A DNA stretch of 34,462 nt from a virus. The notes beneath the pieces were generated by a model that was not told the DNA's origin, made no database searches, and saw only the letters and a list, made by a program, of their open reading frames with translations. Position 1 is the first letter of the stretch. Every line of letters starts with the position of its first letter. This document shows positions 4,227-34,462 of the stretch, piece after piece. The stretch lies in the UHGV virus genome UHGV-1637875; one strand, 5' to 3'. The position numbers and the translations under genes are program-made.

Positions 4227-5342
4227 TTAAACTTCTCTAAATTCTTGCCCAAACACTTTGCCAGTTTTAGAAGAGGCTTGTGTAGGAAGTACCATTATAT
4301 CTGGAGGTGAAGCCGATTCGCAGACATAATTAACGCGAATACCGTTGACGCCAAATTCGGCAGGTTTTGAAATGCCGCCATTTCTTGATACTTCAGAAAA
4401 GCTTAAATTTCTCATGCCGCCTTGACCTGCTTGGGCAGTTCTTTGTGCATATATCGTAAATCCTACTGCATTTTCAGGAACAACTACATAATCTTCTTTT
4501 AATTCCCAAGACCCAGCTTGCCCAGTAAACTCAGCTTGGGTCGAGGAAATATATCCATTTGATGCATCATAAAAACGAATAGATATATTTGTAGTTCCAA
4601 GATCAAGTAAATCAGCATCAGCATATAGTTGTGCTTTAAGATAAAGAACATCACCAGGAATTAAATTGTAGTCAGAAAGTTTACTTATAGCAGCTGAAGT
4701 TGGCAATCGCGCAATTTCATTATTAGTTCCTCCAACCGCAGACATAAATTGCTCAACGCTTTCGTATGTTCTTTTAGGAAATCCTGTAGCTCCGACGTCT
4801 TCTAAACTATCAAATACAACATCTAACATAGTTTGATAGTCATCTGTGCTTTTTCTATTACTTAGTTTAACATGCTCTAATGCGATAGCTCTTTTAGAAG
4901 AAGTGTAAAAAGCAGCATATGACACGTCAAATCTTGACAATACTGAATCTGATGGAAAAACTGAAGTTCCTGCTCCCCTTAACCAAGATACCACTTCAGG
5001 AGGAAAATTAACCTTTCCGCTAGTTAATATAGCAACAAGTCTATTGTTTGACAAAGAATTCATGAAACTGACAAAAGCGGCAGATGTTGTATTGTTTGAA
5101 GCAGAAAAAGCATATGACTTGCTATCAACTAATGCTCCCGTAGAAGGGTCAAAAACTCTTAAATGAAGACCTGCACTAAATGTTTGATTTCCAACGGGAT
5201 TATCCTGAAATTTAACATATGGTCCCGCAGTAGAAAGCGGGCAAGAACCCGCTATGCTTATTTTATATCTTACTGAATTGCTTTCCGATAAAAATGGCGT
5301 TTGGACATATCCTTGTCCAAACTCTGCCATAAATTTTTCCAT
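4227..5342 (-). CDS. 35: Long tail fibre hinge/connector gp35
   Basis: 371-aa ORF (T4 gp35 is about 372 aa) between genes 34 and 36; AGAGG ribosome-binding site. Confidence 0.85.
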   Translation of the reverse strand: MEKFMAEFGQGYVQTPFLSESNSVRYKISIAGSCPLSTAGPYVKFQDNPVGNQTFSAGLHLRVFDPSTGALVDSKSYAFSASNNTTSAAFVSFMNSLSNNRLVAILTSGKVNFPPEVVSWLRGAGTSVFPSDSVLSRFDVSYAAFYTSSKRAIALEHVKLSNRKSTDDYQTMLDVVFDSLEDVGATGFPKRTYESVEQFMSAVGGTNNEIARLPTSAAISKLSDYNLIPGDVLYLKAQLYADADLLDLGTTNISIRFYDASNGYISSTQAEFTGQAGSWELKEDYVVVPENAVGFTIYAQRTAQAGQGGMRNLSFSEVSRNGGISKPAEFGVNGIRVNYVCESASPPDIMVLPTQASSKTGKVFGQEFREV

Positions 5343-5350
5343 AATACCTC

Positions 5351-8300
5351 TTATTCAATCCACTCAAATTTAACAGTTTTATTCACTGGGTCAGGAATAA
5401 TGCGAACATTACCAATTCGCAAGAAATCGCGAATAGTAAGATTACCTATTATTCCATTATCAGATGGGATCGCTCCTATATCTGAAGGTTGAGGAGGGTT
5501 ACCTCCGTCAAATACCTGAACAAAACTTGACCAAGAATTTTTAGTTTTCTGCCATGTACGTGTCCAGCGAGTGGTACGTGCTTCTGGGGTCGTTGGATAA
5601 GTAATCCAATCTTGGTAAAGTGAATCAAGTGTGTTACCAAACTGAGTCAATGTACCAGGAGATTTAACTTCTTCACCACGCTCCAAATAAGGAAGTCCAG
5701 TAACTTCGCTAGTTTTTTCAACCATTTTAAAATAACCTGGGAACTGGTTATAAGTAGCTGAATCATTAATATCAATTGACCAGAATCCTACAGTATCAGG
5801 TGTTGGCGCACGGGTATATAAATCAGAGGTTTTAGTACCCTGAGAACGAATTCTCGAGTTAACAGTCAAACCACCTGAATTTATAGTAGCACCTTTGGCG
5901 ATGATTAAGCTTTCACCAATCGTTACTTGACCAGATGCATTATTAATAGCTAATGGACGTAATCCATTAAATCCGCCACTCTGATCACCCGATGCAGTGA
6001 GCATAAAATTCGTTACTGACCCGTCATTGCGAACAATGAAACCATAATTTCCGTTAATAGCACGGAAAGCATTTGCGCTTCGAGAAATAATTTCACCAGT
6101 TGCAGTGACTGAATTACCAAATGTTGCTACACCATTTGCATTCAATGTTCCTGAAGCATTAACATTTATCGGTGTTACTGTGCCGTTGATATTAAATGTT
6201 ATATTTCCAGCTTTATTACGCTGAGAATAAAAATGACTAGACGTTTCATCACTAACTTCAAATACGGTAGAACGTGTTGTGTCTGATTCCCCGCTAAATT
6301 GATTTCCCCACACTCTGACTGTCATCGTTTGAGCTGGGTTCGTCCCAGTTTGAGGTCCTTTTTCAAAAATCAGACGAGTTGCCGTTCCAGTATTAGAAAT
6401 AGTTAGTGTACTATTTGCTGAAACTGATCCACCAAACGTAGCAGTACTAGATGATACAAGAGGGGCACTCAGGTTCGTTTGTTTGGTTAAGGTTAGTGAA
6501 CCATTAACTGTCTGGGCAATATCCCTACGAATGAACTGAGATGAATCTAGACCATCTAATAAATTTGCGTCAGCAGCTTTTGCTTTTAACGGCAAATAAT
6601 TTGCTAATACACGGTTTAATTCATATGGTGATACTGCATAACCATTTTTCTCATATAGTTCTAAGTCCTGCGTAGAACCAGCTGTATCATTACCAACGAA
6701 CGTAATTGAACCAGATGAGGTTTTAACAAAACCTCTTATCGCAGTAGTAGCTGCCCAAGTAGGTTCACTCTGCACAATCCATTTTAAATTTTTTGGAGAT
6801 ACAGCAGTATTTGCTGACGTTCCAGTCACGGTTTCAGACTGAGTTGCAACTTTAATAACACCTTCTTGCGATTCGGTAGATTTAGTACCTAAAAGCTTTT
6901 TAGGAGTTATTAAAACATTATCTAATTTTCCTGCAGCAGCTTCAACTTGTGTAGCTACACGAAGTGTACCACGTTGTGTCTCATTTGCTTCAAGAATATT
7001 AAGGGTATAATGGTCCCAGAGAGTTCCTGATTCAACTAATCCAGATAGAGCAACAACAGAAGTACGATCAGTACTATTAAATCTAGTTTTAATTTTTAAT
7101 GGTGTAGAGATACGAGTATCGTCGACGCCTGCGTCGAATTCAACTTGTGTAGCAATTTCAGCTATACCACTTAAACTTTCAGTTGCTCTACGGTTATTTA
7201 AAGTTTTAGGAGTGACTGCGCGAGTATAATCAGTTCCTGTATTAACTTCACTTTGCGTAGCAATTTCAATTAAACCAATTCTTCTATCAGTTGATGTCTT
7301 TTTATGTAACGTTTCTGGCGTTACAACCGCATTTGCCCATCCTTCTTGGCTTTGTCCAGCAATTACTTCACTTTCAACTGCTAAAATTACTGCACCTTGC
7401 TGTGTTGGAGTAGCTTTATACTGATCCAGTGCTTTAGGCGAAACAACTAAATTATTAGTGTTTTTATTGTAAACATTTGTACCATTTAATTCACGACTAG
7501 AAGCTGGGGTAGCTCCTGCGGTAGATACAAAAGTTACAATACCTGATAATGATTCAGAACCTTGACGAGCTTGAAGCTTTTTAGGAGTGATGATTGTAGT
7601 ATCATCGATACCTGTATTAGTTTCCTGCTGCGTAGCAATTTCAGCAACACCTCTACGAGTTTCTGTAGCAGTTCTTTCATTCAGCTTTTTAGGAGTGATG
7701 ATAAGGTCATCAGCAAAAGAGAATGTAGTGTTCTGATTTACTTGAGCAGTAGTTGCTATTCTTGCGATACCTCTACGAGTTTCTGTAGCAGTACGGTTAG
7801 CTAATGTTTCTGGAGTAATTGCTAATTCTTTTTGTGGAGAATTTTCTAAATCGACGTTAGCTTGGGCTTGTGTAGCTAAAGCAATTACGCCTAATCTTGC
7901 TCTAGTAGAATTATTTAAAGAATCGACTCTTTCAACTGTTGGAACGTTTTGTTGTACTACCCAGTATTTTCCGTCAGAATCTTCAATATAAGCAAGCTGT
8001 AAAACTGGAACATAATTAGTTTCACCGTTAAAAACTAATTCTTGAACAGTCACCCATTCAGCTTCAGGTTGATATTCTGAGCGTTTTGGGAATTGCAGCA
8101 ATTGAACTGAAGAAGCAATTTTATCTTCACCGGCAGCTTTGATTTTAACTGTTTGTCCTTTTCTCATGTAATTCATGGAAATTTTAACAGTATCACCAAC
8201 AGAAATATTAGTTGGAAGCTGAAGTTCAATCGTTTGAGTTGTTCCATTATTCGCACCAAATACCATAACTTCTTCATTTGGACGAATGTTTGAATTAGTC

Positions 8301-9220
8301 GTTATAATGCGTAAACGTGCTTTACTATCCCCGTCAAACAATCTCCATAATTTTTCACTATCATCAAACATCAAGAAACCGTCAATCGATGTACGGCCTT
8401 CAATGGAATGAGTTCCAACTTCTTGTACTGAAGTTGTTTCATCATATGTCGTGACAATTGTATGATAAAGTGGATTTAATTTATCTAAATCAACGAAATT
8501 AATAATATCGCCATGATTAGCAAATCTCGGAAGTTTAATATTAATCGGCGCTGCGGAAGTAAATCTACGCACGATAAAATCATTAGATTGTGCTTGATAT
8601 GCAGTCGATGGAGTAACAATTGCAGCTTCTCTGCTATAATCAGCAACATACATTTGCCACAAACGATTATTAAAAATGAATATCATCTGTGACTTTGGAT
8701 GAGTCATTAAAACTGAACGTACTTGTTCACCTCTAAAATTAACAATGCTCTGATTTGAAGAACTTATTTTAACCTGATTTATACCAGGTTTTCCACCGAT
8801 ATCTTGAATTATTACTGTTTCTCCATCGAGCGGAGAAGGTGGTAAAGTAAACTCAATGTCATTACCAACTGATGTATCTACTGAAATTGCTTTTCCGGAT
8901 TTTAATTGATATGGTCCAGATGATACAGTTGTATATACGGCATCAGTACGTAATGCTTTCCAACGAATTCTATTAAAATTTCCAGCAGGTTTTGGAATAT
9001 TATCCGTTGCTGCCCAAAAACGATTATTATAAATGATTACAAAATCTTTTAAATATCCACGAGTTGGATCATATTGCTGAACTGTGTTTTCTTGAATTAA
9101 GTAATCAACGTTAACACCGTCAGTTCCTACGGTACGATCAGCTAAAGCTACGTTGATTATTTTATCGCCACCTGCGTCCAGACCATCTTCTGCTCTGAAC
9201 TTTCTTTTAATCTCGGCCAT
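5351..9220 (-). CDS. 34: Long tail fibre proximal subunit gp34
   Basis: 1289-aa ORF, the same length as T4 gp34; contains multiple ~40-aa fibre repeats (TExxxG...ATQ...TPKxL); preceded by a late promoter. Confidence 0.9.
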   Translation of the reverse strand: MAEIKRKFRAEDGLDAGGDKIINVALADRTVGTDGVNVDYLIQENTVQQYDPTRGYLKDFVIIYNNRFWAATDNIPKPAGNFNRIRWKALRTDAVYTTVSSGPYQLKSGKAISVDTSVGNDIEFTLPPSPLDGETVIIQDIGGKPGINQVKISSSNQSIVNFRGEQVRSVLMTHPKSQMIFIFNNRLWQMYVADYSREAAIVTPSTAYQAQSNDFIVRRFTSAAPINIKLPRFANHGDIINFVDLDKLNPLYHTIVTTYDETTSVQEVGTHSIEGRTSIDGFLMFDDSEKLWRLFDGDSKARLRIITTNSNIRPNEEVMVFGANNGTTQTIELQLPTNISVGDTVKISMNYMRKGQTVKIKAAGEDKIASSVQLLQFPKRSEYQPEAEWVTVQELVFNGETNYVPVLQLAYIEDSDGKYWVVQQNVPTVERVDSLNNSTRARLGVIALATQAQANVDLENSPQKELAITPETLANRTATETRRGIARIATTAQVNQNTTFSFADDLIITPKKLNERTATETRRGVAEIATQQETNTGIDDTTIITPKKLQARQGSESLSGIVTFVSTAGATPASSRELNGTNVYNKNTNNLVVSPKALDQYKATPTQQGAVILAVESEVIAGQSQEGWANAVVTPETLHKKTSTDRRIGLIEIATQSEVNTGTDYTRAVTPKTLNNRRATESLSGIAEIATQVEFDAGVDDTRISTPLKIKTRFNSTDRTSVVALSGLVESGTLWDHYTLNILEANETQRGTLRVATQVEAAAGKLDNVLITPKKLLGTKSTESQEGVIKVATQSETVTGTSANTAVSPKNLKWIVQSEPTWAATTAIRGFVKTSSGSITFVGNDTAGSTQDLELYEKNGYAVSPYELNRVLANYLPLKAKAADANLLDGLDSSQFIRRDIAQTVNGSLTLTKQTNLSAPLVSSSTATFGGSVSANSTLTISNTGTATRLIFEKGPQTGTNPAQTMTVRVWGNQFSGESDTTRSTVFEVSDETSSHFYSQRNKAGNITFNINGTVTPINVNASGTLNANGVATFGNSVTATGEIISRSANAFRAINGNYGFIVRNDGSVTNFMLTASGDQSGGFNGLRPLAINNASGQVTIGESLIIAKGATINSGGLTVNSRIRSQGTKTSDLYTRAPTPDTVGFWSIDINDSATYNQFPGYFKMVEKTSEVTGLPYLERGEEVKSPGTLTQFGNTLDSLYQDWITYPTTPEARTTRWTRTWQKTKNSWSSFVQVFDGGNPPQPSDIGAIPSDNGIIGNLTIRDFLRIGNVRIIPDPVNKTVKFEWIE
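7570..7800 (-). repeat. Tandem direct DNA repeats (about 110-120-bp period) inside gene 34
   Basis: Perfect 24-bp repeat acctctacgagtttctgtagcagt at 7649-7672 and 7769-7792; agctttttaggagtgatgat at about 7574-7593 and 7683-7702. These encode the repeated fibre motif. Confidence 0.7.
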
Positions 9221-24254: not shown

Positions 24255-25454
<1,200 letters not shown>

Positions 25455-25455
<1 letters not shown>

Positions 25456-28092: not shown

Positions 28093-28401
28093 ATGAAACT
28101 GACAACTGAACAGAAAGTAGCAATTCGTGAAATTTTGAAAACTAAATTGTCCATGGGTATTTCAAACGTAGTTTTTGAAAAGTCTGATGGTACTATTCGT
28201 ACTATGAAAGGTACTCGCGATGCTGACTTTATGCCAACCATGCAAACTGGTAAATTGACTGAATCTACTCGGAAAGAATCTACTGATATGATTCCAGTAT
28301 TTGATGTTGAGCTTGGCGAGTGGCGAGGTTTTTCTATTGACAAATTGATTTCTGTTAATGGTATGAAAGTTGAGCATTTACTCCAATTTATTGGTAAATA
28401 A
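28093..28401 (+). CDS. Hypothetical protein (cd-31 region)
   Basis: 102-aa ORF. Confidence 0.6.
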   Translation: MKLTTEQKVAIREILKTKLSMGISNVVFEKSDGTIRTMKGTRDADFMPTMQTGKLTESTRKESTDMIPVFDVELGEWRGFSIDKLISVNGMKVEHLLQFIGK

Positions 28402-28427
28402 ATGCTTTAAGAATTATTTGTTATTAT
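28401..28427 (+). promoter_or_regulatory. Candidate MotA-dependent middle promoter for gene 31
   Basis: aaTGCTTtA (28401-28409) fits the MotA box consensus; 12-bp spacer; TATTAT (28422-28427). Confidence 0.4.
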
Positions 28428-28457
28428 TAATTCATCTGTTAACAAAAAGGAAAAACG

Positions 28458-28793
28458 ATGTCTGAAGTACAACAGCTACCAATTCGTGCTGTCGGTGAAT
28501 ATGTTATTTTAGTTTCTGAACCCGCACAAGCCGGTGATGAAGAAGTTACAGAATCAGGACTTATTATCGGTAAACGTGTTCAAGGTGAAGTTCCTGAACT
28601 GTGTGTAGTTCACTCTGTCGGTCCTGATGTTCCTGAAGGTTTCTGCGAAGTTGGTGATTTGACTTCTCTTCCAGTTGGTCAAATTCGAAATGTTCCGCAT
28701 CCTTTTGTAGCTCTGGGTCTTAAGCAGCCAAAAGAAATTAAACAAAAATTCGTTACCTGTCACTATAAAGCTATTCCGTGTCTTTATAAGTGA
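28458..28793 (+). CDS. 31: Co-chaperonin gp31 (GroES-like; capsid protein folding)
   Basis: 111 aa, [47 protein letters not shown]...; matches T4 gp31. Confidence 0.9.
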
Positions 28794-28801
28794 TATAAAT
28801 A
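28794..28801 (+). promoter_or_regulatory. Possible late promoter (TATAAATA) upstream of rIII
   Basis: Exact TATAAATA directly after the gene 31 stop, about 140 nt upstream of the rIII ATG. The motif is expected several times by chance in an AT-rich genome, so this is tentative. Confidence 0.35.
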
Positions 28802-28940
28802 ATAATATGAATTGGGTGTCGGAATAATAAGTTAACCGAACAATTCTATGTGGTAGTCTACAACTGAGAGATCTGTCGAAAGAAGATGAAATTCAGAAGA
28901 ACGTGACTACCGAGTTTTAATCTCTAACGAGAATTTTTAA

Positions 28941-29189
28941 ATGATTAAACAATTACAACACGCTCTTGAACTGCAACGAAACGCATGGAATAATGGTCAC
29001 GAAAACTATGGCGCATCTATTGATGTTGAAGCCGAAGCTCTTGAAATCCTGCGTTATTTCAAACATCTGAATCCTGCTCAAACTGCATTAGCTGCTGAGC
29101 TTCAGGAAAAAGATGAACTTAAGTATGCTAAGCCTCTGGCTTCTGCTGCACGAAAAGCAGTTCGTCACTTTGTGGTAACACTGAAGTAA
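28941..29189 (+). CDS. rIII: Lysis-inhibition accessory protein rIII
   Basis: 82 aa, MIKQLQHALELQRNAWNNGHENYGASIDVEAEALEILRYFKHLNPAQTALAAELQEKDELKYAKPLASAARKAVRHFVVTLK; matches T4 rIII in sequence and length. Confidence 0.85.
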   Translation: MIKQLQHALELQRNAWNNGHENYGASIDVEAEALEILRYFKHLNPAQTALAAELQEKDELKYAKPLASAARKAVRHFVVTLK

Positions 29190-29434
29190 TTTATTGGAGA
29201 TTCACTGCCTTAGTGTGAGCTAAAATCGAGGAGCCATCGAACTGTCTGATTAATGATTTGCGAATCATTATAGTTTTAAGACCCCGGCAGTTTTATGGTG
29301 TACCTCTTGAATGTGAATGATGACGGGTTTATGGTTATCCTGGTCGTTAAATATCCAAAAACCTATGTTCCCCTTGAGGGCTTGCGCAGGCAATGCCAAT
29401 AAGTCCTGCATTTTCATTTAAAAGAGAATTTATA

Positions 29435-29611
29435 ATGGCAAAACAAGCTAAAGCAAAGAAAGCAGTTGAAAAGAAAGTTGGTGATTCTAAACGCGCTGGC
29501 TACAAGCGTGGGTCGAACTCTCGTATCAATCAAACTGTTGAGAAGATCATGCGCCGAGCACGTGCGGTTCTTCGAGATGATGCTTCTCGTTTTGGTAAGC
29601 AGAAAGCATAA
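29435..29611 (+). CDS. Small basic hypothetical protein (first of nine ORFs between rIII and gene 30)
   Basis: 58 aa from the ATG at 29435 with AAAGAG upstream; lysine/arginine-rich (MAKQAKAKKAVEKKVGDSKRAGYKRG...); followed by a strong terminator. Confidence 0.55.
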   Translation: MAKQAKAKKAVEKKVGDSKRAGYKRGSNSRINQTVEKIMRRARAVLRDDASRFGKQKA

Positions 29612-29616
29612 GTTGA

Positions 29617-29640
29617 GGACTCCTTCGGGAGTCCTTTTTT
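29617..29640 (+). terminator. Rho-independent terminator (UUCG tetraloop)
   Basis: ggactcc-ttcg-ggagtcc followed by tttttt. Confidence 0.8.
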
Positions 29641-29665
29641 ATTTTCCAAAGATTGCATAAAGTTG

Positions 29666-29713
29666 TTTACAGTATGGTTCCTTTGTGATAGTATTATCTT
29701 ACACAAACAAAGG
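29666..29713 (+). promoter_or_regulatory. Early promoter with -10 box nested in a stem-loop (PeSL-type)
   Basis: gTTTACA (29665-29671), 17-bp spacer, TAGTAT (29689-29694); dyad cctttgt (29680-29686) / acaaagg (29707-29713), the right arm abutting the AGGAG of the next gene. Confidence 0.55.
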
Positions 29714-29721
29714 AGAATAAA

Positions 29722-30054
29722 ATGAAAACGATTAATCTGAACGCTGCAGTTAAAACTAAATGCTTCAATGGTAAATATGATGAAACTATGTGGTTCTTAA
29801 TGGCAGTTGAAGGTGATATTATTGAAGTAGAAACAACAGAAGGTATGGGAACAGATTTCACCTTTACAATTCAAGTTCATAATTTCTTTACTGGTTGGAT
29901 TTATGAATTGAATACAGTAATCGTTGGAAAAATTGAACAAAATGAATTAGGTGAATGGTATTATGTTACAGCCCGTCAACGTGCCGAACGCTTAATTGAG
30001 AAGATGAAAAAAGTTGGTAAACTTGACATGCAGCATTGGAAAGTAGTAAAATAA
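29722..30054 (+). CDS. Hypothetical protein
   Basis: 110-aa ORF with an AGGAGA ribosome-binding site. Confidence 0.65.
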   Translation: MKTINLNAAVKTKCFNGKYDETMWFLMAVEGDIIEVETTEGMGTDFTFTIQVHNFFTGWIYELNTVIVGKIEQNELGEWYYVTARQRAERLIEKMKKVGKLDMQHWKVVK

Positions 30055-30057
30055 TTG

Positions 30058-30096
30058 TTTACTTTGGTACAGGATATGATATTATATACCTGTACC
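30058..30096 (+). promoter_or_regulatory. Early promoter with -10 box nested in a stem-loop (PeSL-type)
   Basis: gTTTACT (30057-30063), 16-bp spacer, TATTAT (30080-30085); perfect 8-bp dyad ggtacagg (30066-30073) / cctgtacc (30089-30096). Confidence 0.6.
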
Positions 30097-30121
30097 GCAA
30101 TTAAACATCTTGGAGAATAAA

Positions 30122-30487
30122 ATGAACTACATTAACTTTGAACGTAAATATGTTTCTAATGGTATTGCAGGTTCTATTGATACTATTTGCCTTTGGAAAC
30201 ATCAAAATGGATCAGTATGCGAAATTGAACAGTATATGACTCCTAACTACGTTTATATGCGATTTGAAAATGGCATCACGGTTTCAATCACAATGGAAGG
30301 TTCAAACTTCAAAATCGCTCTGGATGATGATTTTCGTCAACGCGATTTAGGGACCCATCCTTGCTGGAATGGCGCTAATCGTAAGCTTCTGGTTAAAACT
30401 TGGATTCGTCATATTCTGAGTAACAGAGCTAAACCTGAGCATCTTGAAGCAATCTTTGATGTAGTTCTTAACGAATTTGATATTTAA
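30122..30487 (+). CDS. Hypothetical protein
   Basis: 121 aa from the ATG at 30122 with a GGAG ribosome-binding site. Confidence 0.65.
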   Translation: MNYINFERKYVSNGIAGSIDTICLWKHQNGSVCEIEQYMTPNYVYMRFENGITVSITMEGSNFKIALDDDFRQRDLGTHPCWNGANRKLLVKTWIRHILSNRAKPEHLEAIFDVVLNEFDI

Positions 30488-30495
30488 AATAAAAC

Positions 30496-30511
30496 AGGGG
30501 CTTCGGCCCCT
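30496..30511 (+). promoter_or_regulatory. Intercistronic UUCG-tetraloop hairpin
   Basis: aggggc-ttcg-gcccct; no U-run; sits between a stop codon and the GAGGA/ATG of the next ORF. Confidence 0.45.
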
Positions 30512-30527
30512 TACTGAGGAAAATACT

Positions 30528-30815
30528 ATGTTTATGACTACTTATTTTGATACCCGCAAAAATTTCTGTGAAGTTGTTTTCTCTAAGGCGCCTAAAGACC
30601 TTCCTGCTCATTTGCAACCTACCAGTGAATCGATTAAAAATTATGTTGATGTGGTTTGTCCTTTAGAATTCCGTACAGTAAATGGGCGTGATACTTTAGC
30701 TATCGCTAAACTTAATCGTGAAATTGACATTGACCCTTCAATTGCGCGTGAAATTAATATTTCTGATATTGGCGGCGGTAATGTTAAATCACACGGCTTT
30801 CAGATGAGGTTCTGA
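30528..30815 (+). CDS. Hypothetical protein
   Basis: 95 aa from the ATG at 30528 with GAGGA 7 nt upstream (the track start at 30477 is a TTG lying inside the hairpin region). Confidence 0.6.
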   Translation: MFMTTYFDTRKNFCEVVFSKAPKDLPAHLQPTSESIKNYVDVVCPLEFRTVNGRDTLAIAKLNREIDIDPSIAREINISDIGGGNVKSHGFQMRF

Positions 30816-31012
30816 TGAAATTCTTTTTAGGTCAAACTGTTGAATTAAAGGGAGTTGGTATACCTGGATTAATTTCTAAGGTTCTACCTCCATTTAAATG
30901 GAGTGGTGTTCAAATAAAAGAGGCTTATATTGTTTCCTGGGTAGATGGAAATGAAGACCTTCGTATGGGTGATGAATTATCTCCTATTTACGGATTAAAG
31001 GAATTAGTATGA
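30815..31012 (+). CDS. Hypothetical protein
   Basis: 65-aa ORF with a GAGGT ribosome-binding site. Confidence 0.6.
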   Translation: MKFFLGQTVELKGVGIPGLISKVLPPFKWSGVQIKEAYIVSWVDGNEDLRMGDELSPIYGLKELV

Positions 31013-31215
31013 ATATAATTAATAAGATTTTTGGAATTCAGTACATTAAGGTCACATATAAAGTAACAGATAAAAATCCATATACTGATGAACATGAAGA
31101 ACCACAAGTTAAGTCTATTATATTAGAAAAGGACCCTAACTGGCCAGTTGAATTTCGTCTTCCTTGCTATGGTCATTGGGCTGATGTTGAAATTATAAGT
31201 ATTGAAAATGCCTGA
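31009..31215 (+). CDS. Hypothetical protein
   Basis: 68-aa ORF with an AAGGAA ribosome-binding site. Confidence 0.6.
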   Translation: MNIINKIFGIQYIKVTYKVTDKNPYTDEHEEPQVKSIILEKDPNWPVEFRLPCYGHWADVEIISIENA

Positions 31216-31666
31216 GTTAGAGATAAGAAGCAATTTCAAATGGCCATCATGCGCATTAAGTAATTTCGCCCAATGGCCTTTTGTTATGGATGGTATCCAA
31301 TTTGGAGGTCTTGAAGGATTTCTCCAAGGATGTAAGGTGAAAAATGTTGAACAGCAGCGTCGTGTATTTGGGTTATCCGGGCTTGCCGCCCAACAAGCTG
31401 GAAGGTCTTATGCTAGAGCTCAGGACCGTGGGACCCTCTTCTGGCTCGGAGTTCCGTTTTCAAGATACTCTCCAGCGTGGAAAGAATTATACACAAATGC
31501 GTATTTTGAGGCAGCGATTCAAAACAAGGGCTTTCGTGATGCATTACAAGCCTCGAAAGGAAAAGTTTTGAAGCACAGCATGGCTAGTAGTCTAACAAAA
31601 GATGATACAATACTAACCGAAGCTGAATTTATTGATGTGTTAAACCTATTAAGAGACTCTCTATGA
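31208..31666 (+). CDS. NADAR-family (YbiA-like) protein, putative ADP-ribose/N-glycosidic hydrolase
   Basis: 152 aa from the ATG at 31208. N-terminal SNF...WPF...DG...F...GCK resembles the YbiA/NADAR signature. Seventh of the nine ORFs between rIII and gene 30, positionally equivalent to T4 30.3. Confidence 0.6.
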   Translation: MPELEIRSNFKWPSCALSNFAQWPFVMDGIQFGGLEGFLQGCKVKNVEQQRRVFGLSGLAAQQAGRSYARAQDRGTLFWLGVPFSRYSPAWKELYTNAYFEAAIQNKGFRDALQASKGKVLKHSMASSLTKDDTILTEAEFIDVLNLLRDSL

Positions 31667-32499
31667 AGCCTACTATTTTGACTGATATTGATGGTGTATG
31701 TTTAAGCTGGCAATCAGGTCTTCCTTATTTTGCCCAAAAATATAATCTTCCGTTAGAACATATTTTAAAAATGATTCAGGACGAAAAATTTATTTCTCCT
31801 GGTAAGCTCTTTAATTGCGATGAAGAACTTGGTGTTAAATTAATCGAAAAGTATAATCGTTCAGATTTTATTCGCTATTTGTCTCCGTATAAAGATGCCC
31901 TGTGTGTAATTAACAAATTAAAAGAAGATTATAATTTTGTAGCTGTTACAGCATTGGGTGATTCTATTGACGCTCTGCTAAATCGTCAATTTAATTTGAA
32001 TGCTCTTTTTCCTGGTGCCTTCTCAGAAGTATTGATGTGTGGTCATGATTCTTCAAAAGAAGAGTTGTTCAAAAAGGCAAAAGAGAAATATAACGTAATT
32101 TGTTATATTGACGATCTCGCTCACCACTGCGATCACGCGAGTGAAATATTAAATGTTCCTGTTTATTGGATGGCTCGAGGGGAGCGTGACAGTATTCCAA
32201 AAACTGCGCAGCGAGTTTATACATGGAATGATGTAGAGAATAAGCTTTTTCCATCGAAGGAAAATAAAGAAAGTTTTGATAGTGAAAAAGCTATAAAAGA
32301 TGTAATTGAAAAGATGATTAAAAACGATTCTTTTCCTTGGAACACTACCTGGAGAACTCCTGGATTTAATCCTTATAATCTATATCATCCATATCAGACG
32401 CATCCGTTTCAGACATGGAACTATATTAAACCCGGTGGCATAGAGTATTTGTATAATAGACCTACTAGTGGTGATAATATTTTCCAAGGAGCATTCTAA
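31663..32499 (+). CDS. HAD-superfamily-like hydrolase (putative phosphatase) with C-terminal extension
   Basis: 278 aa; N-terminal ILTDIDGV fits HAD motif I (DxDG); a later CYIDD resembles motif IV; start overlaps the NADAR stop (ATGA). Confidence 0.55.
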   Translation: MKPTILTDIDGVCLSWQSGLPYFAQKYNLPLEHILKMIQDEKFISPGKLFNCDEELGVKLIEKYNRSDFIRYLSPYKDALCVINKLKEDYNFVAVTALGDSIDALLNRQFNLNALFPGAFSEVLMCGHDSSKEELFKKAKEKYNVICYIDDLAHHCDHASEILNVPVYWMARGERDSIPKTAQRVYTWNDVENKLFPSKENKESFDSEKAIKDVIEKMIKNDSFPWNTTWRTPGFNPYNLYHPYQTHPFQTWNYIKPGGIEYLYNRPTSGDNIFQGAF

Positions 32500-32768
32500 T
32501 GTTTGTTGTTCATACTATTTATGAAAATGAAGGTAATACTACACGTGATTACGGTCATGTAAATCAATTTTTTAGATGCAATCCAGAATTCCGAGCTCAA
32601 AAAGACGAACGAATTTTTAAAAAATGTGTAGAGCAAGGTTTCATTTACGTCAAGCACTGGATGCAAGGAAATAAAGTTAGAACCACGTACCACAAGTCTT
32701 TGACTGAGCTTAATGATGAATTGATTTATAATAGAGCTGTAAACCAAACTCTAAAGGATGAACAATGA
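32499..32768 (+). CDS. Hypothetical protein
   Basis: 89-aa ORF with an AAGGA ribosome-binding site, immediately upstream of the ligase gene. Confidence 0.6.
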   Translation: MFVVHTIYENEGNTTRDYGHVNQFFRCNPEFRAQKDERIFKKCVEQGFIYVKHWMQGNKVRTTYHKSLTELNDELIYNRAVNQTLKDEQ

Positions 32769-34228
32769 TTCTTAAAATTCTGAACGAAATAGCATCTATT
32801 GGTTCAACTAAGCAGAAGCAAGCAATTCTTGAAAAGAATAAAGATAATGAATTGCTTAAACGAGTATATCGTCTGACTTATTCTCGTGGGTTACAGTATT
32901 ATATCAAGAAATGGCCTAAACCTGGTATTGCTACCCAGAGTTTTGGAATGTTGACTCTTACCGATATGCTTGACTTCATTGAATTCACGTTAGCTACTCG
33001 GAAATTGACCGGAAATGCGGCAATTGAGGAATTAACTGGATATATTGCTGACGGTAAAAAAGATGATGTTGAAGTTTTGCGTCGGGTGATGATGCGAGAC
33101 CTTGAATGCGGTGCTTCAGTATCTATTGCAAACAAAGTTTGGCCAGGTTTAATTCCTGAACAACCTCAAATGCTGGCAAGTTCTTATGATGAAAAAGGCA
33201 TTAGTAAGAATATCAAGTTTCCAGCTTTTGCGCAGTTAAAAGCTGATGGAGCTCGGTGCTTTGCTGAAGTCAGAGGTGATGAATTAGATGATGTTCGTCT
33301 TTTATCACGAGCTGGTAATGAATATCTAGGATTAGATCTTCTCAAGGAAGAGTTAATCAAAATGACTGCAGAAGCTCGCCAGATTCATCCAGAAGGTGTG
33401 TTAATTGATGGCGAATTGGTATACCATGAGCAAGTTGAAAAGGAACCAGAAGGCCTAGATTTTCTTTTTGATGCTTATCCTGAAATTAGTAAAGCTAAAG
33501 AATTCGCCGAAGTAGCTGAATCACGTACTACTTCTAATGGAATCGCTAATAAATCTTTAAAGGGAACCATTTCTGAAAAAGAAGCTCAATGCATGAAGTT
33601 TCAGGTCTGGGATTATGTCCCGTTGGTAGAAATATACGGTCTTCCTGCATTTCGTTTGAAATATGATGTACGTTTTTCTAAACTAGAACAAATGACATCA
33701 GGTTATGATAAAGTAATTTTAATTGAAAACCAGGTAGTAAATAACCTAGATGAAGCTAAGGTAATTTATAAAAAGTATATTGACCAAGGTCTTGAAGGTA
33801 TTATTCTCAAAAATATCGATGGATTATGGGAAAATGCTCGTTCAAAAAATCTTTATAAATTTAAAGAAGTAATTGATGTTGATTTAAAAATTGTAGGAAT
33901 TTATCCTCACCGTAAAGACCCTACTAAAGCGGGTGGATTTATTCTTGAGTCAGAGTGTGGAAAAATTAAAGTAAATGCTGGTTCAGGCTTAAAAGATAAA
34001 GCTGGTGTAAAATCGCATGAACTTGACCGTACTCGCATTATGGAAAACCAAAATTATTATATTGGAAAAATTCTAGAGTGCGAATGCAACGGTTGGTTAA
34101 AATCTGATGGCCGCACTGATTACGTTAAATTATTTCTTCCGATTGCGATTCGTTTACGTGAAGATAAAACTAAAGCTAATACATTCGAGGATGTATTTGG
34201 CGATTTTCATGAGGTAACTGGTTTATGA
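32765..34228 (+). CDS. 30: ATP-dependent DNA ligase
   Basis: 487 aa, the same length as T4 ligase; adenylation motif KADGAR; MILKILNEIASIGSTKQKQAILEKNKDNELLKRVYRLTYSRGLQYYIKK.... Confidence 0.95.
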   Translation: MILKILNEIASIGSTKQKQAILEKNKDNELLKRVYRLTYSRGLQYYIKKWPKPGIATQSFGMLTLTDMLDFIEFTLATRKLTGNAAIEELTGYIADGKKDDVEVLRRVMMRDLECGASVSIANKVWPGLIPEQPQMLASSYDEKGISKNIKFPAFAQLKADGARCFAEVRGDELDDVRLLSRAGNEYLGLDLLKEELIKMTAEARQIHPEGVLIDGELVYHEQVEKEPEGLDFLFDAYPEISKAKEFAEVAESRTTSNGIANKSLKGTISEKEAQCMKFQVWDYVPLVEIYGLPAFRLKYDVRFSKLEQMTSGYDKVILIENQVVNNLDEAKVIYKKYIDQGLEGIILKNIDGLWENARSKNLYKFKEVIDVDLKIVGIYPHRKDPTKAGGFILESECGKIKVNAGSGLKDKAGVKSHELDRTRIMENQNYYIGKILECECNGWLKSDGRTDYVKLFLPIAIRLREDKTKANTFEDVFGDFHEVTGL

Positions 34229-34413
34229 AAGCTTACTTAGAAACAATTGTCATTGCTCAAAAAGAAGGTGGAGATGTTTCTACTTCTGTATCACAAGTCA
34301 TTCTCGAATTTGTAGATGCATATGCTTACAATAAATTTACAGAAACATTTGATGCCTATGAAAAAGGACCAAAGTTTGAAATATATCGTGCTCTCTTACC
34401 ACTAGATTACTAA
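34225..34413 (+). CDS. Hypothetical protein downstream of ligase
   Basis: 62-aa ORF with a GAGGT ribosome-binding site; ATGA overlap with the ligase stop; followed by a hairpin. Confidence 0.6.
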   Translation: MKAYLETIVIAQKEGGDVSTSVSQVILEFVDAYAYNKFTETFDAYEKGPKFEIYRALLPLDY

Positions 34414-34435
34414 AGGCCTTCGGGCCTTTAATTTT
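34413..34435 (+). terminator. Hairpin terminator (UUCG tetraloop) at the end of the early ligase transcription unit
   Basis: aaggcc-ttcg-ggcctt followed by taatttt; could terminate in both directions. Confidence 0.55.
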
Positions 34436-34462
34436 ATAAATAGAATAAACACTAGAGAGAGA

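Follow-up and report, generated by a model that had tools for sequence, protein, structure and literature searches.

A gene for an AdfN orthologue and an overlapping gene for a predicted HAD phosphatase in a T4-like phage probably act independently

The window analysed here is the whole 34,462-nucleotide (nt) stretch of DNA from the virus genome UHGV-1637875, in which two overlapping open reading frames (ORFs), at 31208-31666 and 31663-32499, correspond to genes 30.3 and 30.2 of phage T4. The two are very probably independent early genes, 30.3 (adfN) encoding a NADAR-fold DNA ADP-ribosylglycohydrolase and 30.2 encoding a HAD phosphatase, most likely of a small phosphoester. The first-pass annotation of the window, made from the sequence alone, had proposed that the pair could form a DNA-modification reversal module protecting phage DNA from ADP-ribosylating toxins. 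Direct reading of the sequence confirmed both ORFs, their ATGA overlap and the motifs that it quoted. The proposed module is not supported, because insertions in 30.2 are neutral under DarTG1 in a published T4 transposon screen, the two genes are not consistently adjacent across T4-like phages, and overlapping junctions are generic in this part of the genome. The anti-DarT function of gp30.3 is already known from work published in 2024-2025, and the window carries an orthologue.

Functional screening and synteny of genes 30.3 and 30.2

The 3.5 kb around the gene pair showed 99.9% identity to Phage NBEco003 and 97-99% identity to hundreds of Tequatrovirus genomes, by which similarity the window is assigned to a T4-like phage (Tequatrovirus). 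The gene order is the same as in RB14 and T4, namely 31.1, 31, rIII, 30.9 to 30.4, 30.3, 30.2, 30.1, 30 (DNA ligase) and alt.1, and the two ORFs were identified as genes 30.3 and 30.2 on that basis.

The requirement for each gene was read from the sheet 'Control_vs_DarTG1' of a published genome-wide T4 transposon sequencing (Tn-seq) screen (bioRxiv 10.1101/2025.11.20.689424). Exactly two genes were significant genome-wide under DarTG1, 30.3 and 30.4. Insertions in 30.3 were depleted about 370-fold (log2 fold change -7.25, q = 0), which reproduces the need for this gene against DarTG1. Insertions in 30.2, with 71 TA sites, gave a log2 fold change of -0.12 (p = 0.61, q = 1). In LB the gene took insertions at 72/72 sites and was fully non-essential, and in minimal medium it was neutral. 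Gene 30.2 is dispensable in the laboratory and is not needed against DarTG1.

For synteny, 159 IMG/VR loci centred on gp30.3 or gp30.2 were collapsed at 90% identity to non-redundant loci. Of 37 non-redundant loci, 35 had a DNA ligase gene no more than 1.6 kb downstream of gp30.2, whereas gp30.3 abutted gp30.2 in 8 of the 37 and lay within 5 kb in 16. Only 9 of 49 gp30.3-centred loci contained gp30.2, and in several complete genomes the distance between the two genes was 54-69 kb. gp30.2 is linked in evolution to the gene for DNA ligase, not to adfN; the ligase link that had been proposed for the pair thus holds across phages for gp30.2 and fails for the NADAR gene. In the window itself the ligase gene does lie downstream of the pair, as the first-pass annotation had stated, but gene 30.1 stands between 30.2 and ligase. 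In two metagenomic viral contigs (L097 and L134), a gp30.3 homologue is followed immediately by a DNA ligase homologue and gp30.2 does not intervene, so that NADAR-ligase adjacency also arises without the HAD gene. Co-occurrence of the two genes at the genome level is uninformative either way, because both are near-universal in T4-like phages (1453 phage records for gp30.2, with hosts from Escherichia to Vibrio and Acinetobacter, and 1511 for gp30.3).

The overlap between 30.3 and 30.2 is one of a series. The junctions 30.5/30.4, 30.3/30.2, 30.1/30 and 30/alt.1 are all ATGA overlaps, 30.4/30.3 overlap by 8 nt, and 30.2/30.1 share TAATG. Since all junctions from 30.5 to alt.1 overlap, translational coupling of 30.3 and 30.2 says little about shared function.

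Gene 30.3 is an orthologue of T4 adfN

Gene 30.3 runs from an ATG at 31208 to a TGA at 31664-31666. The program-made ORF list gave an upstream TTG at 31202 as the start; ATG 31208 was adopted because it is the annotated start in T4 and RB14 and yields the published numbering of E36 and K43. The product matched Pfam PF08010 (Phage_30_3) over profile positions 1-138 of 138 (E = 6.1e-70; 233.8 bits, with a cut-off of 36), and its motif region reads '...ALSNFAQWPFVMDGIQFGGLEGFLQGCK...'. It is identical to T4 gp30.3 at 147 of 152 residues (97%) over an equal full length, and the substitutions relative to T4 AdfN (P2S, K11R, V53I, M125I and S128G) fall at no catalytic or invariant position. The window protein retains E36, K43 and H123, and none of the three varies among 53 homologues in an alignment reaching down to 36% identity. 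The histidine corresponding to H123 is a signature of the phage gp30.3 subfamily of NADARs (PMC11125620, PMC11825919).

The AlphaFold2 model of gp30.3 had a predicted local distance difference test score (pLDDT) of 92.7 and a predicted template modelling score (pTM) of 0.88. H123 is placed in a strand at 120-123, and the C-terminal helix is intact (helix 138-151, with the full 152 amino acids (aa) present). The top three matches of the model in a Foldseek search of PDB were E. coli YbiA (2b3w; E = 6e-5, template modelling (TM) score 0.69), PnNADAR from Phytophthora (8bau) and the NADAR of G. lovleyi (8bat); beyond these three NADAR proteins, the search returned no match below E = 2. A profile built from the gp30.3-family alignment picked up YbiA among PDB sequences at E = 0.0037. 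Family profiles were needed for the PDB sequence matches of both gp30.3 and gp30.2, as single-sequence searches generated only noise (E of 0.5-1). The profile match and the predicted fold with its three NADAR neighbours uphold the NADAR assignment of the first-pass annotation, which had been made from a motif.

T4 gp30.3 hydrolyses guanine-linked ADP-ribose on DNA in vitro (Toxins 2024, PMC11125620). It was named AdfN and shown to be needed by T4 to resist DarTG1 (Johannesman et al., Nat Commun 2025, PMC11825919), full activity being lost in the E36A and K43A mutants and the RB69 allele being C-terminally truncated and inactive (PMC11825919). AdfN by itself is active in vitro (PMC11825919, PMC11125620), and its authors consider an additional T-even protein probably required for full activity (PMC11825919). 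T4 AdfN fails to rescue DarT1 toxicity in uninfected cells (PMC11825919, PMC11125620). Reversal of DarT-type guanine ADP-ribosylation, predicted for this ORF at first pass, has therefore been demonstrated by experiment for the T4 protein, which is 97% identical to this one, and by orthology the AdfN of this phage would likewise hydrolyse guanine-linked ADP-ribose and protect against DarTG1. With an active site predicted to consist of E36, K43 and the subfamily histidine H123, AdfN would act on phage DNA that host DarT1 has modified, cutting the N-glycosidic bond that joins ADP-ribose to guanine. Release of the ADP-ribose would restore a replicable template and permit phage growth on DarTG1 hosts.

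Many natural gp30.3 variants are shortened or fused to adjoining ORFs (P0104-P0107, P0113-P0118 and P0150; L013 at 4636-5001; L004 and L085 at 4354-4550) and recall the inactive frameshift allele of RB69, a pattern in the sequences that suggests repeated loss of anti-DarT function. The nested alternative-frame ORF 30.3' is open in close relatives, sometimes only from its second Met, and closed in distant gp30.3 homologues.

Gene 30.2 encodes a predicted C1-capped HAD phosphatase

Gene 30.2 runs from an ATG at 31663-31665 to a TAA at 32497-32499, and its product matched phrog_420 (E = 7e-93); like the Pfam match of gp30.3, this lies well outside what chance would give. Motifs were assigned on two alignments, A1 (44 homologues) and A3 (45 much more distant relatives). 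Motif I reads D8-I-D10-G-V (within 'ILTDIDGV') and is preceded by a strand at 4-7 in the AlphaFold2 model; all A1 sequences share D8, D10 and G11, and in A3 there is still no variation at D8 or D10. The model is confident for residues 1-190 and shows a Rossmann-like core, a helical cap (helices 16-72) inserted after motif I and before the second core strand, and disorder over the last ~80 residues. Judged from these alignments and the model, gp30.2 is a HAD-fold phosphatase with all four motifs and a C1 cap, in agreement with the first-pass HAD assignment, which had rested on motif I. The enzyme is predicted to be Mg2+-dependent, with D8 as nucleophile, D10 as acid/base, T96 and K132 binding phosphate, and D150/D151 binding Mg2+.

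The subfamily was approached through relatives. Against curated HAD profiles, gp30.2 itself hit no Pfam family at E <= 0.1, and against NCBIfam it generated nothing meaningful, a match to thiamine diphosphokinase (E = 0.01) being far below the cut-off of that family. A Foldseek search with the model returned 105 PDB matches at E <= 0.001, which among the matches listed were HAD enzymes throughout and were led by mouse cytosolic 5'(3')-deoxyribonucleotidase (cdN). The gp30.2 family profile gave as its best and only near-significant match among PDB sequences the cdN entry 2jao (E = 0.028), aligning DxDGVxxxW-x-SGL with DGVLADF-ESGL. A full scan of 1.8 billion representatives yielded 1402 gp30.2 relatives. 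Pfam NT5C (PF06941) was matched by 18 of 45 sampled distant homologues (best E = 4e-10), though not by the gp30.2 of the window, and distant relatives reached by profile search matched PF00702 and PF13419. An NT5C-like nucleotidase is the best subfamily call, held with moderate confidence. Because the cap is helical and of the C1 type and the closest relatives are probably 5'(3')-deoxyribonucleotidases, the substrate would be a small phosphoester, most likely a (deoxy)nucleoside monophosphate. The searched literature, queried under several names, contained no functional or biochemical study of gp30.2.

The tail of gp30.2 (residues ~201-278, 32263-32496) is absent or different in many homologues, and many of the tails end in G-x-G-IEY[LW]-x-x-[QR]-PT. 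This motif might be a docking peptide for a partner.

Features of the region and neighbouring genes

The features are collected in Table 1. The whole block 30.5/30.4/30.3/30.2/30.1/30/alt.1 (30815-34413) resembles a single translationally coupled early-gene string. A scan for sigma-70 promoters and terminators over 28400-34462 found 22 sites, with 20.5 expected from shuffled sequence, and delimited no transcription unit around the pair. Just past the right end of the window, two genes downstream of ligase, is the position of alt, an ADP-ribosyltransferase gene (6667-8760 in the RB14 locus L001). One early region thus houses both an ADP-ribosylating enzyme of the phage itself and the NADAR that removes ADP-ribose, as the literature already remarks. 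In one phage (UViG_2974742932), 30.4 is apparently split.

Table 1. Coordinates of genes, motifs and junctions around genes 30.3 and 30.2 (positions in the window)
Feature	Position	Strand	Basis
Gene 30.3 (adfN), 152-aa NADAR-fold DNA ADP-ribosylglycohydrolase (anti-DarT factor NADAR)	31208..31666	+	Pfam, T4 identity, model
Catalytic codons of adfN: E36 (31313-31315) and K43 (31334-31336)	31313..31336	+	Codons read directly; T4 mutant data
H123 codon, last-beta-strand histidine marking the phage gp30.3 subfamily of NADARs	31574..31576	+	Invariant in 53-sequence alignment
Nested alternative-frame ORF 30.3', 75 aa, inside adfN	31344..31571	+	ORF list; T4 annotation 'internal translation'
ATGA overlap, 30.2 start codon on 30.3 stop codon	31663..31666	+	Sequence read
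Gene 30.2, 278 aa; predicted N-terminal C1-capped HAD phosphatase domain (~aa 1-200), NT5C-like clade, then disordered tail	31663..32499	+	
HAD motif I: D8 (predicted nucleophile), I9, D10 (predicted acid/base)	31684..31692	+	Alignments
HAD motif II: T96	31948..31950	+	At least 90% conserved in A1; end of core strand 91-96
HAD motif III: K132	32056..32058	+	Invariant in A1 and A3
HAD motif IV: D150-D151 (predicted Mg2+ ligands)	32110..32115	+	At least 90% in A1, D151 invariant in A3; end of strand 145-150
Conserved short motif IEYLYNRPT in the disordered, variable gp30.2 tail	32440..32466	+	Alignment; pLDDT <50 around motif
Gene 30.4, 68 aa, stop overlaps adfN start by 8 nt; candidate accessory gene	31009..31215	+	phrog_2042
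Gene 30.1 (DUF3045), between 30.2 and the ligase gene	32499..32768	+	Pfam PF11243, E = 1e-63
Gene 30, ATP-dependent DNA ligase; conserved downstream neighbour of 30.2	32765..34228	+	Pfam PF01068, E = 3e-32; phrog_114

Alternative readings

The second gene significant under DarTG1 raises the question of whether the upstream gp30.4, and not gp30.2, is the partner of adfN in a two-gene unit. Gene 30.4 is the sole significant gene other than 30.3, it is neutral in LB versus M9, and the authors of the screen argue against widespread polar effects (bioRxiv 10.1101/2025.11.20.689424). gp30.4-like ORFs are confined to the neighbourhood of Tevenvirinae-type adfN, for which dependence on a T-even factor has been reported, but this restricted distribution may only mirror recent common ancestry. 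The depletion of 30.4 is also about 3.5-fold (log2 fold change -1.79, q = 0.014), against about 370-fold for 30.3. No Shine-Dalgarno sequence is recognisable ahead of the adfN start codon, which lies 3 nt before the 30.4 stop and probably relies on 30.4 translation, for which reason the 30.4 signal can be read as a polar effect; truncated 30.4 translation should cut AdfN synthesis through lost coupling. Polarity is the simplest explanation of the 30.4 signal, and a genuine partnership is unlikely, although it fares best among the alternatives. We hold to a similarly low degree the composite view that gp30.4 is the T-even factor for AdfN, making 30.4-30.3 the functional pair, while gp30.2 is separately a nucleotidase functionally tied to DNA ligase.

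A second alternative concerns the position of 30.2 before ligase. gp30.2 could be a DNA-end-healing 3'-phosphatase that readies nicks or breaks for ligase, like the HAD domain of polynucleotide kinase-phosphatase (PNKP). The persistence of ligase downstream across very divergent T4-like phages favours such a role, although gene order in the T4-like replication module is conserved generally, so that synteny alone is weak evidence. One of the 45 distant relatives weakly matched Pfam HAD_PNKP (E = 0.003), and the disordered tail, which carries a conserved short motif, could serve for docking to another protein. Against this, the sequence and Foldseek neighbours of gp30.2 are nucleotidases, not PNKP, and its model has a closed helical C1 cap; in HAD enzymes such a cap favours small substrates over macromolecular ends. 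In addition, 3'-phosphatase activity is already supplied in T4 by PseT, which the window encodes at 24550-25455, and 30.2 is non-essential while ligase is essential. End healing by gp30.2 is accordingly rated as improbable, clearly below the gp30.4 partnership. The conserved place before the ligase gene may point to a role linked to ligation or end processing, but the capped architecture argues against a DNA end as the substrate.

The joint module, in which gp30.2 would process released ADP-ribose or a phosphorylated intermediate or would itself be the T-even factor of AdfN, is already largely refuted and very improbable: it can point to the ATGA overlap in this phage and T4, to the 16 of 37 loci with the genes abutting or within 5 kb (including some distant Acinetobacter- and Morganella-type phages), to the additional T-even protein thought probable in the AdfN paper (PMC11825919), and to the activity of T4 AdfN in trans in RB69, whose lineage's genomes carry 30.2, but 30.2 is not among the two significant DarTG1 genes, adfN homologues lie far from 30.2 in most lineages, the overlap is generic, and a phosphatase is not among the in vitro requirements for guanine de-ADP-ribosylation reported in the AdfN paper or in the Toxins 2024 NADAR paper, AdfN being active alone. 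On the Tn-seq and synteny results, gp30.2 was rejected as the missing AdfN cofactor.

Significance and comparison with known systems

The orphan, antitoxin-like NADAR by which a phage erases DarT1 ADP-ribosylation from its DNA holds up as a finding, but it was already published for T4 in 2024-2025. What the present analysis adds is a firmer annotation of the long-hypothetical 30.2, as a predicted capped, deoxyribonucleotidase-like HAD phosphatase strongly syntenic with DNA ligase, and its placement outside the anti-DarT function. As the only other DarTG1-conditional T4 gene, 30.4 could bear on which T-even factor potentiates AdfN.

The mammalian 5'(3')-deoxyribonucleotidases (cdN, 2jao and 2i7d; mdN, 1q92; NT5C, PF06941) resemble gp30.2 in having a HAD fold with a C1 cap, a motif I of the form DxDGV and, eight positions past the nucleophile, an aromatic residue followed by S-G-L. 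Identity is just 14-18%, and gp30.2, unlike these enzymes, carries an extra disordered tail of ~80 aa. The dTMP phosphatase Dtm of Bacillus phage PBS1 (PF06941; Adv Sci 2025, PMC12697855) is a phage-encoded HAD enzyme of the NT5C family with a deoxynucleoside monophosphate substrate; it removes dTMP, serving the synthesis of dU-DNA (PMC12697855), and sets a precedent for phages that reshape nucleotide pools with a deoxyribonucleotidase of their own. A Dtm-like base-exclusion role was considered for gp30.2 and is regarded as unlikely, because its homologues occur in very diverse T4-like phages. The 3'-phosphatase domain of T4 Pnkp (PseT) is a HAD-superfamily phosphatase of the same phage in a ligase-dependent repair pathway. 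That domain is cap-less and acts on polynucleotide ends, whereas gp30.2 is predicted to be capped and mononucleotidase-like.

The closest counterpart of the window's AdfN is that of T4, which occupies the same position in the 30.x gene string and has the same E36, K43, H123 and C-terminal helix, differing by five substitutions. The YbiA/NADAR fold is common to AdfN, the DarG1 and DarT1-associated NADAR antitoxins (G. lovleyi, 8bat) and E. coli YbiA (2b3w), with Foldseek TM scores of 0.58-0.69, and according to the literature AdfN and the NADAR antitoxins have guanine-ADP-ribose glycohydrolase chemistry in common. AdfN lacks the N-terminal extension of DarG1, has a last-strand histidine where DarG1-type NADARs and YbiA have Asp or Glu, and, unlike the DarT1-associated NADARs, is an orphan with no linked toxin.

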